From Pelagomonas calceolata (Eukaryota): 64,000 bases of DNA. The translations under genes were made by a program, and so were the position numbers. The DNA lies in the NCBI GenBank assembly GCA_918797485.1, contig CAKKNE010000001.1:4278001-4342000 (forward strand). The letters run 5' to 3'. The notes beneath the pieces are model-generated. The model did not search any database, was not told the origin of the DNA, and saw only the letters and a list, made by a program, of their open reading frames with translations. Shown one piece after another: positions 6,882 to 12,827 of the stretch (positions within the stretch are counted from its first letter, which is position 1; the number at the start of each line of letters is the position of its first letter).

Positions 6882-7853
6882 ATGCTGCGCCGCACGGTTG
6901 TCCTCATACGACGCGCACAAGCACCACTGGCACGGTATGGGCGCCAGTCGTCGACGCGCCGCGAGCTCAGCTTCGCCGAGGAGCTCATGCAGCACCGCAA
7001 GACGCAGGGCAAGACCATCGCTGCGAGGCGCGAGGACGGCGCCGTCGCGTTCCCGAATTTCGACGCGGTCGACGTCGACGGCACGGCCGTGGCCTTCCCC
7101 GCGTTGCTGAAACGACGCGTCACGTTGGTCGGGGTCTCGTTCCGGGCCATCGGCGCGGCGCAGTCGCGCGAGTGGCTCGAACCATTTGGTCGACGAGTTT
7201 ACTTGACTTATAGAGGGATGGCGCATACGGCCACTGCCCATTGTTCGCTCATCGAACAGCCCGTGTTTAGGTTCAAGTTTCTGCGGAACTGGCTGCTGAG
7301 AGATTTGCGGAAGGCGGCGACGGACATCTCCCTGAACACGTGGAATTGCCTCAAAATCGGCGACGTCGCTCCCATAAGACAGGAGCTGGGGCTCGACAAC
7401 CGATTGGTGGGCTACGTGTACTTGTTGGATCAGGAGGGGCGCGTGCGCTTCCGCGGGTCCGGAAGCCCGACGGAGGACGAATTGCAGCTCCTCTTCCAGG
7501 TCACGGAGGAGTGCGTGTCCGAGCGAGAGCGCGTCTGGACGGACGTCGACGAGCACGCGGCCGAGGTTACGTTCGACGTCGACGATGGTGAGGACCGGGA
7601 CGCGCGGCTGAAGAGAGATAGAGGCTTTCGAGCTAGAGCGCGGGACGCGCAGCTGCCGCTCGAGTTACCGGTCTGGGAGGCCGGCGGCGACGTCCCCGAG
7701 CCGCTCCCGCGCGTGCCGTGGGACGTCGTCGGCGCGGACGGCGGGCCCGTCGCGCCGCCGCCGCGCAAGCGCGAGGCGTCGCGCGCCGCGCGCCGCGCCG
7801 CCGGCCCGCTCTCGACGCAGACGCGGCCCGGGCGGAAGCGGCGGAGACACTAA
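6882..7853 (+). CDS. ATP10: Mitochondrial ATPase complex assembly factor ATP10
   Basis: Mitochondrial-type presequence; LGLDNRLVGYVYLLDQEGRVRFRGSGSPTEDEL matches the ATP10 C-terminal motif. Confidence 0.8.
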   Translation: MLRRTVVLIRRAQAPLARYGRQSSTRRELSFAEELMQHRKTQGKTIAARREDGAVAFPNFDAVDVDGTAVAFPALLKRRVTLVGVSFRAIGAAQSREWLEPFGRRVYLTYRGMAHTATAHCSLIEQPVFRFKFLRNWLLRDLRKAATDISLNTWNCLKIGDVAPIRQELGLDNRLVGYVYLLDQEGRVRFRGSGSPTEDELQLLFQVTEECVSERERVWTDVDEHAAEVTFDVDDGEDRDARLKRDRGFRARARDAQLPLELPVWEAGGDVPEPLPRVPWDVVGADGGPVAPPPRKREASRAARRAAGPLSTQTRPGRKRRRH

Positions 7854-8272
7854 GTTTTAGGATACAATACGCGCTTCCGCACCCACCGCTCGCCGTCGGA
7901 CCAGCGGATACTGTCCGCCGGGAAGGTCACCTGGACCATGCAGTCCAGCACGGCGCTGTTTCTCGCGCTCTCGAAGACTCCCGACTTGCCGGCGACTCGT
8001 AGGCCGTCGTCGCCAGCGCTTGACTCGAGTACGCGCCATCGGCCGTCCTCCTCCGCCTCGACGACGACGGCGCCGTCGCGCGTGACGACTCTGCGTCTGC
8101 TCTTGGATCCCTCGACGTAGTACAGGCCGTCGTATGTTTGTGCTGGGACGTCAGCACGCGCAGCGAACGGTACGGCAGCTGTTCCAATCGCAAATGTCCG
8201 CCTGGAGAGTGATAGTGCGATTGCTCGGCCGGCGAGGCACCAAATGAATAGCGGCTTCGCACGCAGCATCAT
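7850..8272 (-). CDS. Small hypothetical protein, possibly thylakoid lumen (twin-arginine signal)
   Basis: Signal-like N-terminus, then SRRTFAIGTAAVPFAARA (RR...AxA). Confidence 0.5.
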   Translation of the reverse strand: MMLRAKPLFIWCLAGRAIALSLSRRTFAIGTAAVPFAARADVPAQTYDGLYYVEGSKSRRRVVTRDGAVVVEAEEDGRWRVLESSAGDDGLRVAGKSGVFESARNSAVLDCMVQVTFPADSIRWSDGERWVRKRVLYPKT

Positions 8273-8505
8273 CGGTGTCGTGTATGTACGTTGTCAAAGT
8301 TATCGATGCGTAGCTGCAGCCTATAATGTGTACGGGGCGAAAACAAAGCGCGAGTCATTAGCTAGCGTTAGTAAGACACTAGCAAGCTCTCCGGCTCGTC
8401 TTGCTCTGCTGCCATTGCTCAGTCATAAAAGGCGTAAGCCTCATCCTCGCAGCCGGTCGCTGCGAGCCACGTGCGCTACGTGCGCTGCGCTTGGCTGCCT
8501 GAAAG

Positions 8506-9846
8506 ATGCCCCCGCGAAGGAAAAAATCAGCTTCCGGCACCACCAGACGCAAAAAGGTCAAAACGGAGCCAAAAGAGGACAATAGTTCTCTAAACATCAG
8601 CGTACGCTGCGGTGAGACGGGCGTGGCGCTTTGGTTTAAGCTTAAGAAGACAACGAAATTCAACAAAATAATGGATGCATTCGCTTCGAGACGCCCTTTT
8701 TTTTCGGTACCAGCGACTCCGCTCGCGCGCCTACCGGCGACGGAACTGTCGAGCCTCGGCGGCGCCGGCGGCGCGCTGGCCGCGGCGCTACGGGCGCGCG
8801 GCGCTGCCGTCTTAAAATTCAAGGGCCTGGACTTCGGCAGACACCCGCTCCTCGCCGAGGCGAACGCTTTCTTCAACAGCACGACTCAGCCGCGGGAGCA
8901 TCGCCTGGATGATGATTCGATGTCGGGCAGCGGTTACAAAAGTCCCGAGACAGGCCGGGAGCTCTACGTCCATCACCGCGGGTCGCCGGGGCCATTCACG
9001 AAGTCCGCGGCTGACGATCTCTTTGACGAGCTGCATGCGATTTCCCTCCAAGTGACCCGTGCGACCGCCCTGGGCCTCACTGGTAGCGGGACGGCGTTTG
9101 ACGAGCTCTTAGACACGAGGTCGTCGCGTTCAGCGGCGTCAAGCTGCCTCCGCTTCCACAAGTACTCGCAGGACAGCATGGCGAAGGATCCCTTGCGTGA
9201 CGCCCGCGTCCTGCCGGGGGGCGGAACGTCAGTCCCTTGCGCTGGTGCTGACCTTGTTGCCTGCCCGCGCCACGTCGACCGCGGCTTAGTTACTCTTATC
9301 CTGCCGTGCTCCGGCGGCTCGCGTCTGGAAGTGATGGATCCGAAGAACGGCTACGTCGAGCCCGTGGACCTGGCCGACGACGAAGTTGCTGTTCTCTGCG
9401 GGCACACCCTCTCGGTCGCGTCTTGCGGTGCAGTTTGCGAGGCGCCACATCGGGTGTCGTGGACGTCGGCTTCAGGGAACGAACGTCTTGCCACCGTGTT
9501 TACTTTGCGCGCGCCGCCGGACGGGCGTTTTGCCGCCGCGCACCAGAAGATCATCGAATCGGGCTGTCCCCACGACAAGGCATACGACCCGGGCTACGGA
9601 GCTCATCGCATTCACAGCGCCTCTTCGATCAAAACATTCAAGGGCGACGAGGACGTTGCCTTCGTCATGCAGAAATTTAGTGAGAGAAATGCTTCGATCC
9701 ACTCGAGGCGGTTCGAGCCCGTGCCCGCCAGGCATTTACGCTTCTTGTATGATGGATCACGCGTACACGGCGATCAGACGCCTGCGAGCCTCGATATGGA
9801 AAGTGGCGAACAGCTTGATTGCTTCGAGCCTATGATGGGCGACTGA
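8506..9846 (+). CDS. SUMO-like domain interrupted by a 2OG-Fe(II) oxygenase domain
   Basis: LNISVR..WFKLKKTTKFNKIMDAFASR is the SUMO N-half; HVD...HRV..R is the 2OG oxygenase triad and 2OG-binding Arg; LRFLYDGSRVHGDQTPASLDMESGEQLDC is the SUMO C-half. Confidence 0.75.
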   Translation: MPPRRKKSASGTTRRKKVKTEPKEDNSSLNISVRCGETGVALWFKLKKTTKFNKIMDAFASRRPFFSVPATPLARLPATELSSLGGAGGALAAALRARGAAVLKFKGLDFGRHPLLAEANAFFNSTTQPREHRLDDDSMSGSGYKSPETGRELYVHHRGSPGPFTKSAADDLFDELHAISLQVTRATALGLTGSGTAFDELLDTRSSRSAASSCLRFHKYSQDSMAKDPLRDARVLPGGGTSVPCAGADLVACPRHVDRGLVTLILPCSGGSRLEVMDPKNGYVEPVDLADDEVAVLCGHTLSVASCGAVCEAPHRVSWTSASGNERLATVFTLRAPPDGRFAAAHQKIIESGCPHDKAYDPGYGAHRIHSASSIKTFKGDEDVAFVMQKFSERNASIHSRRFEPVPARHLRFLYDGSRVHGDQTPASLDMESGEQLDCFEPMMGD

Positions 9847-9964
9847 TGCTCAGAGGAGGCGGGTAGGTGTGTAAAACTACTCTTGTTGAATTGAAGACTC
9901 CTTTTATGAATCTCTACTAACGCCCCACCGCAAACACGCGCCGCCGCGCGCTGCAAGCTCACCA

Positions 9965-11067
9965 TCAGAGGTACTCGGACGCGACCGCCAGAACGCCGAT
10001 CAGGACGATGGCGCCGTAGGCGAAGGCGAACTTCCGGAGCGCCTGCTCCGGGGCCGCCGCCGCCGGCGGCGCCTCCCACGTGTCCGCGCGCTCGACGAAG
10101 CGGGCGCGCGGCGGCGTCTCGGCCGCCTCGGCCGCGGCGCGCGGCGAGGGCTCCCGGATCGCGGGGCGCTTCGCCGCCGCGGCAGCGGCGGCCGGCGCGG
10201 GCCGCTTCGCGCCAGCGGTCGGCGACGGCACCGCCTCCTCCTCCTCGAACGCGGGCTGCGACGTCGGCGACGCCACGGGCGACTGCGCCGGCGTCGACTG
10301 CCGCGACGTCTGCCGCGACGACGACGGGCTCTTCAGGGGCGCCGACGCGGCCTTGATGCGCAGCGACGACTCGACCGTGTTCCTCTTCGACTTCGAGCGG
10401 CCGATCATGGGCAGGCCGCTGATCTGCTTCTTGATCCCGCGCGTGAAGGACATCTTCTTTTTCTTCTGCGCGATCTCCCGATCTTTGACCGCATCCGCCG
10501 AGCCGAGCTCGATGGCCTTGTCGAAGTGCTCGATCGCCTTGTCCAGGTCCTGCTCGACGCCGACGGCGTACAGGTACCGCACGCCCAGTTGGTGCGTCGC
10601 GTGGGCGTTGCCCTGGTCCGCGGCGCGCGTCAAGTACTCGAACGCCACCGACTCGTCCTTCTCGTAGCCGCCCCGCCCGAACGTCGACATCTGTGCCAAA
10701 AACATCTGCGCCTTCACCGCGCCGCCCTCGGCCGCGATCTTCAGCCACTTCCGGGCCTCCTCCTTGTCCACGACGCCGGTCTTGCCGTGGGCGTGCATCA
10801 GCGACAGCTCCCACGCGCCCTCCGCGCTGCCGGCCTCGGCCGACTGCTGGAACGCCTTCATGGCCGCGGGCCAGTCCTTGCGCGCGTAGGCGGCGTGGCC
10901 GACGGCCAGCATGGCTTCGCCCTGCGTGGTGCTTGCGGTTTCGGGGGCGCGCGTGGAATAAGGGTTTTCGGATTGGATGCTTTTTGGGGTTGCGCGCGCG
11001 GGCGGCGCCCGGGGCTGCACCGGCGTGGGTGGGGCAGCGATGCGGTGGTGCGTACCTCGGTAGCCAT
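9965..11067 (-). CDS. Sel1-repeat protein with C-terminal TM anchor, 2 exons (intron 10922-11055)
   Basis: Repeats of the type A..WLKIAAEGG..KAQ and YLTRAADQGNAHATHQLG..Y; ATGGCTACCGAG|GTACG...CACGCAG|GGC splices in frame. Confidence 0.8.
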
Positions 11068-11429
11068 CTCTCAGGCGGCCTCGTAATTAGTTTGCAAATG
11101 GCGCAAAAATGGCGGCCTCTCAGGCGCATCCATCCAGCACCCCGCGCGGGCAGCAGCTAGCGGCGTCCAAAGAGGCGCTGAGCAGGCCTCCTCGCTCGCC
11201 GTGGGCCGGTGGTAGCTATCTGGCTCGCATTTCTATCAGTGCTAGTGTGTCTCAAGACACGCTAGGTCGAATTGCAAAACCGGCTCTGGTCTGCAGCAGT
11301 GCTCGCTGCTCGCAAGCTGTCGGCGAGCTTCGTTATTTCTTCTGTCGGCTGCAGCAGCGATCGCGGAACTGCGCTCGCGCGCCAGTAATTACTGCCACCA
11401 GCAGGCTGCAGCACACTGAGCTCGCAGCG

Positions 11430-12827
11430 ATGCGCTGCCTCGTGGTACTCGCGACGGCGAACGCCCTGCAGCAGCGCTACTTCGCCTCGACGGCGCGCGG
11501 CTGCGAGCCGTACCTCGCCGACGAGCTTGAGAGTATCGGCGCGTCTCACGTCGAAATCGGGCGCAGCGGCGTGCACTTTGACGGAGACACGCGCGTGGGC
11601 TACGCGGCGCTCATCCACGCGCGGACGGCCACGAAGGTGCTGGAAGTGCTGGCCTGGCGGAACGGCGTCGAGACGGCCGCGGACCTGTATAACTTGGGAA
11701 GGGACGTCCCGTGGCCCGAGCTCATGGACGTCGAGGGCACGCTGCGCGTCGACGCGACGCTGACGGGCGGCGTCGCGCAGGCGCTGGCCCACTCGCACTT
11801 CTCGTCGCTGACCCTGAAGAACGCCGTCGTCGATTCCTTTAGGGGCGAGAACCAGCTGGGCCGGCGGCCGTCCGTCGCCAAGGATGGGTGCGACGTGCCA
11901 CTGCACTTGTTTTTGGACCGGGATAGGTGTACCTTGTACCGATCTTTATCATCAGAGTCGCTTCACAAGCGCGGCTATAGGTCACGAACGTCTCACAGAG
12001 CGGCTTTACGACCGACCGTCGCGGCCGCGATGCTCTACGGGGCCCGCTGGCCCCAGCGCAGCATGCGAGGCGAAGCACTATGTGATCCGATGTGCGGCTC
12101 GGGCACGTTTCTCATCGAGGCGGCGCTCATGGCGCGGCAGATCGCGCCGGGCCTGCAACGGGCGGAGAGCGAGGGCTTCGCGTGCGAACGGTGGAAGGAC
12201 TTCGACGGAGACGCGTGGGACGAGGTTATAAGGGAAGCGCGAGAACGCGTCCGGGACACATGCCCCTCGAAAATCATGGGTGCGGACGCGCACGCGGGCG
12301 CCGCCGGTCTAGCGAGGGACGGCATCGCGAACGCCGGCGTCGAGGACGACGTGACGATACAAGTCGCCGACTGCCTCGCGTGGACACCTGAGTCAAAACC
12401 GTCTCTGGTCATTTCGAACCCGCCCTGGGATGGAAGACTAGAGGGCGCCGACGCGGCCTGGACGGCTTTGAGGAGTTTCCTCAAGAGGGAGGCGGGCGGC
12501 GGCGTCGCCCATTTGCTGACGGGGAACATGCCGGTCACGCGGAACCTGATGATGCGCGCGTCCAAAAAGAAGAAGCTGAGCACGGGCGGCGTCGACTTGC
12601 GGTGCCTGACCTATGAGATTCGGGGCTCAGAAGTGGACGTGGCGCCGCAGATTGCGAAGAAGGACGTGCCGCTCTGGCACGCGCCGCCGCGGTCGACCTA
12701 CGAGGCGCTGACCGTCGTGGTCCTGAAGGAGAAGCTGCGCGAGCGGTCCCTGAAGGTGTCGGGGCGGAAGGCGGAGCTGGTCGATCGGTTGTTGGAGGCG
12801 GACGCGCGGGTGCTCGAGGGGGCTTAA
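11430..12827 (+). CDS. THUMP-domain RNA m2G methyltransferase (RlmL-like) with C-terminal SAP domain
   Basis: SLHKRGYR, AALRPTVAAAML, DPMCGSGTFLIEAA, ISNPPW; C-terminal LTVVVLKEKLRERSLKVSGRKAELVDRL is a SAP motif. Confidence 0.85.
   Translation: MRCLVVLATANALQQRYFASTARGCEPYLADELESIGASHVEIGRSGVHFDGDTRVGYAALIHARTATKVLEVLAWRNGVETAADLYNLGRDVPWPELMDVEGTLRVDATLTGGVAQALAHSHFSSLTLKNAVVDSFRGENQLGRRPSVAKDGCDVPLHLFLDRDRCTLYRSLSSESLHKRGYRSRTSHRAALRPTVAAAMLYGARWPQRSMRGEALCDPMCGSGTFLIEAALMARQIAPGLQRAESEGFACERWKDFDGDAWDEVIREARERVRDTCPSKIMGADAHAGAAGLARDGIANAGVEDDVTIQVADCLAWTPESKPSLVISNPPWDGRLEGADAAWTALRSFLKREAGGGVAHLLTGNMPVTRNLMMRASKKKKLSTGGVDLRCLTYEIRGSEVDVAPQIAKKDVPLWHAPPRSTYEALTVVVLKEKLRERSLKVSGRKAELVDRLLEADARVLEGA

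Follow-up and report, generated by a model that had tools for sequence, protein, structure and literature searches.

Fusions of an oxygenase to SUMO are already known. Chlamydomonas has four tandem genes (Cre17.g716150, g716200, g716251 and g716301) for a 2OG-Fe(II) oxygenase with a C-terminal SUMO that ends in GN, and the role of the SUMO moiety in these fusions is described there as unstudied (PMC7522501). SUMO fusions without the diGly are known in grasses (PMC6680281). The split arrangement described here is new, and what sets it apart from the known fusions is the order SUMO-N, enzyme, SUMO-C. At positions 8506–9846 of the window (the whole 64-kb stretch of DNA analyzed), the first half of a SUMO, an oxygenase and the second half of the SUMO are encoded in one chain with a GD end. 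Our literature search found no published case of a SUMO split around an enzyme (supplementary files may list more fusions), no occurrence of the phrase "split SUMO" among the matches listed, and nothing on At3g12940 or PUB62/63 with an oxygenase. The arrangement is so far confined to one cluster of proteins that are 87–100% identical.

The gene is a single-exon open reading frame (P0001, 446 aa; 8506–9846) on the plus strand, as are all of its features given below, and its transcribed span, judged by read depth and contig ends, is approximately 8404–9877. The protein opens with a basic tail (residues 1–27; 8506–8586) that is NLS-like by inspection, in agreement with a sequence-only reading of this DNA. 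The tail contains VKTE (residues 18–21; 8557–8568), the only motif of the SUMO-acceptor type psi-K-x-E in P0001. Strand 1, strand 2 and helix 1 of SUMO follow (residues 28–63; 8587–8694), and then a 2OG-Fe(II) dioxygenase of the IPNS/T7H/DAO type (residues 64–404; 8695–9717), which includes the C-terminal helix of the oxygenase family (residues 383–399; 9652–9702). Strands 3–5 of SUMO complete the chain (residues 405–446; 9718–9843). A Ser-Arg-Arg repeat occurs at the left junction (residues 61–63; 8686–8694) and again at the right (residues 400–402; 9703–9711), with seven of nine bases identical. The translation ends in MMGD, so the terminus is GD rather than GG, as had been noted from the sequence.

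The sequence-only reading had placed the split in the loop between the helix and strand 3 of SUMO, and it expected the halves to match Rad60-SLD or SUMO. Both statements are borne out. Over the whole of P0001 the Pfam Rad60-SLD model scored above its cut-off (E = 5e-7), its positions 2–34 falling on residues 30–63 (E = 0.059 alone) and its positions 38–69 on residues 408–438 (E = 2.4e-5 alone). A profile of 76 stand-alone SUMOs gave two collinear matches, of 30.9 bits at residues 8–63 and 42.7 bits at residues 408–440, and the solved SUMO2 and Smt3 chains likewise matched P0001 in two collinear stretches. When intact SUMO and the halves were used together as a profile query, 104 proteins were returned among 226 candidates. 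The nearest were pelagophyte-type SUMOs (the P0040 cluster, 52 members), close to P0069, which we take from the name given by its source to be the SUMO of Aureococcus anophagefferens. This kinship, together with seawater metatranscriptomes, suggests that the gene belongs to a marine alga resembling pelagophytes. The two halves tile the algal SUMO P0040 at the helix–strand 3 loop without overlapping and with no more than a single uncertain residue, the N-half reaching R63 and the C-half starting at P405 or V406. Identity to P0040 is 17/35 in the N-half and 25/42 in the C-half (42/77 together), and a second sequence type of the split protein has 45–46 of the 77 positions identical. Canonical pelagophyte-type SUMO, which is 55–60% identical to the split halves over these 77 positions, is contiguous, has 95 residues and ends in GG-L, whereas P0001 is split and ends in GD. 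P0001 has neither the C-terminal diGly of a canonical SUMO modifier nor its contiguous beta-grasp of ∼77 residues, since 341 residues lie between the halves.

A different parsing would make residues 360–446 a whole, degenerate SUMO and residues 28–63 a separate leftover half, and some MAFFT alignments do place the first half of SUMO on residues 360–395. However, the SUMO profile gives residues 8–63 a score of 31–45 bits, its match to the C-terminal region starts no earlier than about residue 398, and the helix at residues 383–399 aligns with the oxygenase family's own tail. Furthermore, residues 378–404 show enzyme-like conservation (1 change in 27 codons), and the segment that precedes them has an indel between the two sequence types. 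We therefore rejected a whole SUMO at residues 360–446 on the limits of the SUMO profile and the position of the tail helix, and regard this parsing as very improbable.

Other SUMO-like sequences also came to light. P0034, P0073, P0082, P0085, P0087, P0114 and P0115 are altered copies of pelagophyte-type SUMO with new N-terminal tails and changed ends, some of them without GG; the basic tail of P0034 has a VKDEP motif that may be compared with VKTEP in the window. A contig of a giant-virus bin (L003, positions 336–608) encodes a canonical SUMO of 90 aa ending in GG-K. The oxygenase relative P0141 has extra sequence at its N-terminus (residues 1–75) that, by eye, resembles ubiquitin; it scores with neither Pfam nor the SUMO profile.

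RNA reads were taken from four raw runs of one sample, 6–12% of each being read, and 398, 300, 275 and 279 reads fell on positions 7700–10300. Plus-strand transcription crosses the insert at the depth seen for the SUMO halves, and no splice joint within 8506–9846 was present in any of the four runs. The gene is one unspliced transcript. The sequence-only reading had raised the possibility of an in-frame splice from GT at 8707 to AG at 9717, by which the insert would be an intron and the true product a contiguous SUMO; it had also considered an assembly chimera. The dinucleotides do exist, in frame and 1011 nt apart, and read depth drops to 0–1.2 at 8744–8830, where one of four contig sets breaks (8796/8832) and another covers only 8989–9856. 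That stretch is visibly G+C-rich, and depth dips comparably at 10136–10222, where the neighbouring gene is also rich in G+C. The 8707–9717 junction was sought in all four runs of the sample and was absent. The acceptor reads GAG, and at a related locus (L002), which has the same neighbouring genes as the window, the donor position is GA rather than GT. A chimera is countered by the other two contig sets, which we guess to be RNA-derived and in which a single gapless contig spans 8406–9863 and 8420–9877, and by the presence of the exact P0001 protein in the mmetsp source. The same layout is also shared by 21 database proteins that are full-length or nearly so, and it occurs on two metagenome contigs (two loci from a scan with 517 pattern matches). 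The splice and chimera readings were rejected, leaving room for a rare spliced isoform of fewer than three reads, and we find it hardly credible that the insert is intronic or an artifact of assembly.

The gene stands head to head with an expressed gene for a 140-aa protein without a Pfam match (7850–8272, minus strand) and tail to tail with a Sel1-repeat gene (9965–10912, minus strand) that has a poly(A) site near 9886. Neither shows an evident functional link to the split-SUMO gene. Further along, positions 11109–12827 (plus strand) encode an RNA methyltransferase of the RlmL/THUMP type with a C-terminal SAP domain (Pfam). Upstream of the split-SUMO gene, an intergenic stretch of 33 bases (8359–8391) matches unrelated contigs in four of four contig sets and resembles a short dispersed repeat.

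The insert has an intact-looking HxD...H...R signature, as had been stated from the sequence. H256-x-D258 and H315, the iron ligands of IPNS-like 2OG-Fe(II) dioxygenases, are present together with R327 and Y220, and Pfam 2OG-FeII_Oxy matches residues 251–334 (E = 1.1e-5). R-x-S is the 2OG-binding motif of such oxygenases; P0001 has R-L-A at R327, and the change from Ser to Ala also occurs in the relative P0136. By sequence, the best solved relatives of the insert are the DAO enzymes of rice and Arabidopsis (E = 3.8e-6 and 2.6e-4). An AlphaFold model built from 30 rows was mostly confident at residues 70–355 and has the IPNS-type fold. Foldseek matched it to Neurospora thymine 7-hydroxylase (T7H, 5c3r; E = 1.5e-14), and its matches at 13–20% identity included T7H, GA2ox3, IPNS and the ethylene-forming enzyme. 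In the Atlas, structural alignments ran over residues 64–403 with TM 0.68–0.74 to eukaryotic clusters, mostly plant and algal. T7H, rice GA2ox3 (6ku3), DAO (6kun/6kwa) and IPNS have this fold in common with P0001 (Foldseek E of ∼1e-14 to 1e-11) and the same HxD...H...R ligands; P0001 differs from them in having R-L-A for R-x-S and SUMO halves at both ends. At 13–20% identity their substrates are not transferable to P0001.

The sequence-only reading had suggested that a protein hydroxylase or demethylase was being recruited. This is not what the fold indicates. JmjC and AlkB gave no Pfam match at E up to 1 and were absent among the Foldseek matches listed. Judged by the model, the enzyme belongs to the small-molecule IPNS class, and a small molecule is its most likely substrate for hydroxylation, the nearest folds being those of T7H, GA2ox, IPNS and DAO. 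Comparison of the window with L002 gives a dN/dS of 0.08 for the catalytic core and of 0.38 for the insert as a whole. Purifying selection acts on the enzyme, and these values make it likely to be active.

A HMMER search with the insert over 1.84 billion representatives, which is independent of length, returned 26 matches: its own cluster, the one close cluster among them, and 25 distant relatives at 35–49 bits. A word-index search found only relatives of 87–91% identity at near length and one fragment at shorter length. Five of the 25 distant relatives have a Pfam Rad60-SLD match, in every case C-terminal (P0138, P0139, P0150, P0155 and P0156); the other 20, several of which are fragments, have no Pfam SUMO match. 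A GD end is likewise found in five of the 25, namely in four of the five Rad60-SLD carriers and in P0144, where the SUMO has degenerated too far to score. These GD-ending members (P0139, P0144, P0150, P0155 and P0156) are environmental sequences, ∼25–30% identical to the insert of the window. GD ends none of the 76 stand-alone SUMOs. The sequence-only reading had called for a comparison of GG and GD in orthologues: of 29 close relatives, all 24 that reach the C-terminal end finish in GD, the other five being cut or frameshifted. Four copies (P0007, P0020, P0021 and P0029) have a stop or a change of frame just after an HRVS motif, and these breaks, in some type-B copies, may reflect a frameshift, an intron or an assembly error.

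A family profile built without the close relatives of P0001 scored P0001 at 148 bits; since its members had been found with the P0001 insert, this score is not fully independent. With a profile of seven SUMO-bearing relatives, profile positions 374–412 fell on residues 24–63, positions 33–297 on residues 92–399, and positions 415–454 on residues 399–446. The segments of P0001 are thus transposed relative to its family. Of 46 relatives scanned with the SUMO profile, none had a scoring SUMO half at the N-terminal end. P0001 has the PF03171 oxygenase domain of the algal 2OG-oxygenase–SUMO fusion subfamily, a complete SUMO (PF11976) sequence in two pieces and, like members ending in GN or GD, a replacement of the second glycine of the diGly. 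Its SUMO is not contiguous and C-terminal; because the first half is N-terminal, we class P0001 as a rearranged variant rather than a plain fusion member. With such fusions and their GD or GN ends among the relatives, the GD end and the link to SUMO are inherited or recurrent traits of the enzyme's family.

Two family members deserve separate mention. P0163 (847 aa, P0138 cluster) comprises an oxygenase, a whole SUMO with an intact internal GG and then ∼440 aa containing a GRDP-like domain, and is possibly a polyprotein of the same family that SUMO proteases could cleave. In P0155 the SUMO stays close to the algal-type canonical SUMO to which the split halves are nearest, which hints at gene conversion or at repeated re-acquisition of SUMO with GD kept.

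A one-off insertion of an unrelated oxygenase into SUMO, as the sequence-only reading had it, is not supported, because the enzyme's own relatives include oxygenase–SUMO(GD) fusions, of a kind known in Chlamydomonas (PMC7522501). We suggest that the ancestral order was enzyme, linker, SUMO(N), SUMO(C), GD, and that such a fusion gene received an extra copy of its enzyme segment within the SUMO moiety. Templated insertion, or tandem duplication with deletions, could have left Ser-Arg-Arg at both junctions; the front copy of the enzyme would then have been lost, and its loss would have turned the basic linker into the N-terminal tail. Clusters of Lys and Arg like those of the tail lie downstream of the enzyme core in five of six family fusions checked. 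Rearrangement of an oxygenase–SUMO(GD) fusion seems the most economical route, as it would explain why the halves tile almost exactly, why GD was inherited, where the basic tail comes from and why both junctions carry Ser-Arg-Arg. The probability that the repeat arose by chance, estimated post hoc, is ∼0.005 at the protein level and ∼0.05 at the DNA level. That P0001 is a rearranged descendant of such a fusion whose halves have probably re-paired as a non-conjugatable SUMO docking handle is a proposition to which we give even chances.

Alternatively, a SUMO-less oxygenase gene could have been inserted into a duplicate of an ordinary SUMO gene, with GD arising convergently in a subfamily that repeatedly gains SUMO. 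Exact tiling is automatic under insertion, Pfam finds no SUMO in most of the distant relatives (20 of 25), and SUMO duplicates without GG do occur among related sequences (P0082 and P0087); these end in GC, however, not GD, which none of the 76 stand-alone SUMOs has. The P0001 halves match stand-alone algal SUMO with a higher score than they reach against any family SUMO domain, and the SUMO of the P0155 fusion tracks that same SUMO. In the oxygenase tree, 12 of whose 22 inner branches are open, the split form is not grouped with the SUMO-bearing members. No unsplit oxygenase–SUMO gene or paralogue of the same lineage lies within the window, and an Atlas search with P0155 gave only scores of ≤0.85 and no SUMO-fusion cluster; NCBIfam held nothing useful for P0001. 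We keep independent insertion as a rival because the halves are nearer to stand-alone SUMO, the tree is unsettled and the window holds no remnant or paralogue. It would require coincidence or selection to have united this uncommon enzyme subfamily with an identical Gly-Asp-stop end, and we rate it as rather improbable compared with rearrangement of a fusion.

Whether the halves still form a SUMO domain is a separate matter. Both exist in two deeply diverged types (67–69% identical) that flank an enzyme 93% identical between the window and L002. The core positions remain hydrophobic at 19/20 in P0001 and 18/20 in the other type. Neutral drift over the full distance that separates the halves from algal SUMO would give a much lower SUMO-profile score than is observed (p = 0.0005 with the halves combined and ≤0.0095 for either one alone, in three proteins). 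The core-hydrophobic count by itself was significant only in P0001 (p = 0.04; 0.23 and 0.19 in the others). When the two halves were predicted as a complex, the score was 0.32 against a mark of 0.34, with controls at 0.00–0.01, which counts neither for nor against pairing. AlphaFold on seven close relatives gave a mean pLDDT of 30.5, and with 30 rows lacking stand-alone SUMOs pLDDT was below 50 at residues 1–46 (bar one residue), 56–68 and 358–446, so that these models are uninformative about pairing. Across the 21 split proteins the combinations of N- and C-half types were A/A 6, A/B 5, B/B 10 and B/A 0 (Fisher p = 0.012); we did not accept the absence of B/A as a sign that the halves co-evolved, since these sequences lack independence and could be assembled chimeras. 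With the evidence mixed, the odds that the halves refold together as one SUMO domain appear slightly better than even.

The same rearrangement may instead have destroyed the SUMO, so that the enzyme and the NLS-like tail were kept and the halves became unfolded, drifting passengers. In the one pairwise comparison available (35 and 42 codons), dN/dS of the halves between types is 0.98 and 0.87, as expected of a decaying relic. By SUMO-profile score, the changes since the types split (19 and 15) were indistinguishable from neutral drift (p = 0.17–0.59), and the constraint on the halves may therefore be older than that split. Post-split core losses were 0 and 1, against 1.5–2.2 expected (p = 0.09–0.57, both halves together); the single core hydrophobic lost in 34 changes, against ∼3.4–3.9 expected, argues against decay but is not significant. 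A stop-free C-half is unsurprising under drift (chance 0.37–0.41), whereas length and the terminal GD are the same in both types. Non-synonymous differences in the halves (38/180) exceed the pooled rate at four-fold sites (35/302, p = 0.006) and do not exceed the intergenic rate (54/335, p = 0.18). A rate at or above these local neutral proxies fits either decay or diversifying selection. D416 of P0001 aligns with D68 of yeast Smt3, which is needed for back-side binding to Ubc9 (PMC13645794); type B has Gln at this position, which argues against conserved Ubc9 back-side binding and is a loss that decay would also explain. On balance we think it unlikely, but far from negligible, that the halves are relics.

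How a re-paired SUMO might serve the enzyme can be sketched. The basic tail would act as a nuclear-targeting signal, and the re-formed beta-grasp would tie the two ends of the enzyme together. SUMO-interacting motifs (SIMs) bind the strand 2/helix 1 surface of SUMO. That surface of the re-paired domain would be offered to SIM-bearing partners. Because GG is absent, the SUMO would be neither conjugated nor released: it would undergo no E1 activation and no cutting off by SUMO proteases. P0001 is likely to be a nuclear small-molecule dioxygenase with a discontinuous, non-conjugatable SUMO clamping its ends, and it may dock on SIM-bearing partners. The fullest version of this idea is tentative, and we hold it at somewhat less than even: a 341-residue enzyme is threaded through the helix–strand 3 loop of its own SUMO, the halves refold around it into a functional docking domain, rapidly diversifying, by which the ends of the enzyme are held together, and the conserved Gly-Asp marks a widespread link between a dioxygenase subfamily and the SUMO pathway.

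If the halves refold, P0001 would be a natural case of SUMO accommodating an entire enzyme in its helix–strand 3 loop, which would offer a usable insertion site for protein engineering. It would also be a recent domain transposition for which the states before (enzyme–SUMO–GD) and after are both in hand. If the halves are relics, the gene would still be a tidy case of rearrangement and a wider sampling of an under-studied family. A lineage in which the enzyme is under selection and the SUMO is relaxed or diversifying is a natural test of the role of the SUMO moiety, a point left open in PMC7522501.

P0001 resembles the Chlamydomonas fusions and the environmental members P0139, P0150, P0155 and P0156 in having PF03171 and PF11976 in one protein. 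In those proteins the SUMO is whole and C-terminal, whereas in P0001 the enzyme lies inside the SUMO fold. The SUMO ends in GN in Chlamydomonas, and in GD in P0001 and the environmental members. The Chlamydomonas genes form a tandem array, whereas the window has one copy; the likeness to Chlamydomonas is drawn from the description in PMC7522501, not from sequence. The RENi proteins (Rad60, Esc2 and NIP45) also have a SUMO-like domain inside a larger protein, where it acts without conjugation, and they offer a model for how the SUMO part of P0001 could dock on Ubc9 or SIMs (PMC13645794). The equivalent of D68 is kept in only one of the two types of the P0001 lineage. RENi proteins carry a whole SLD1 and a whole SLD2, and Esc2 is reported to be without enzymatic activity (PMC13645794); P0001, by contrast, has an enzyme domain, and a single SLD split around it.
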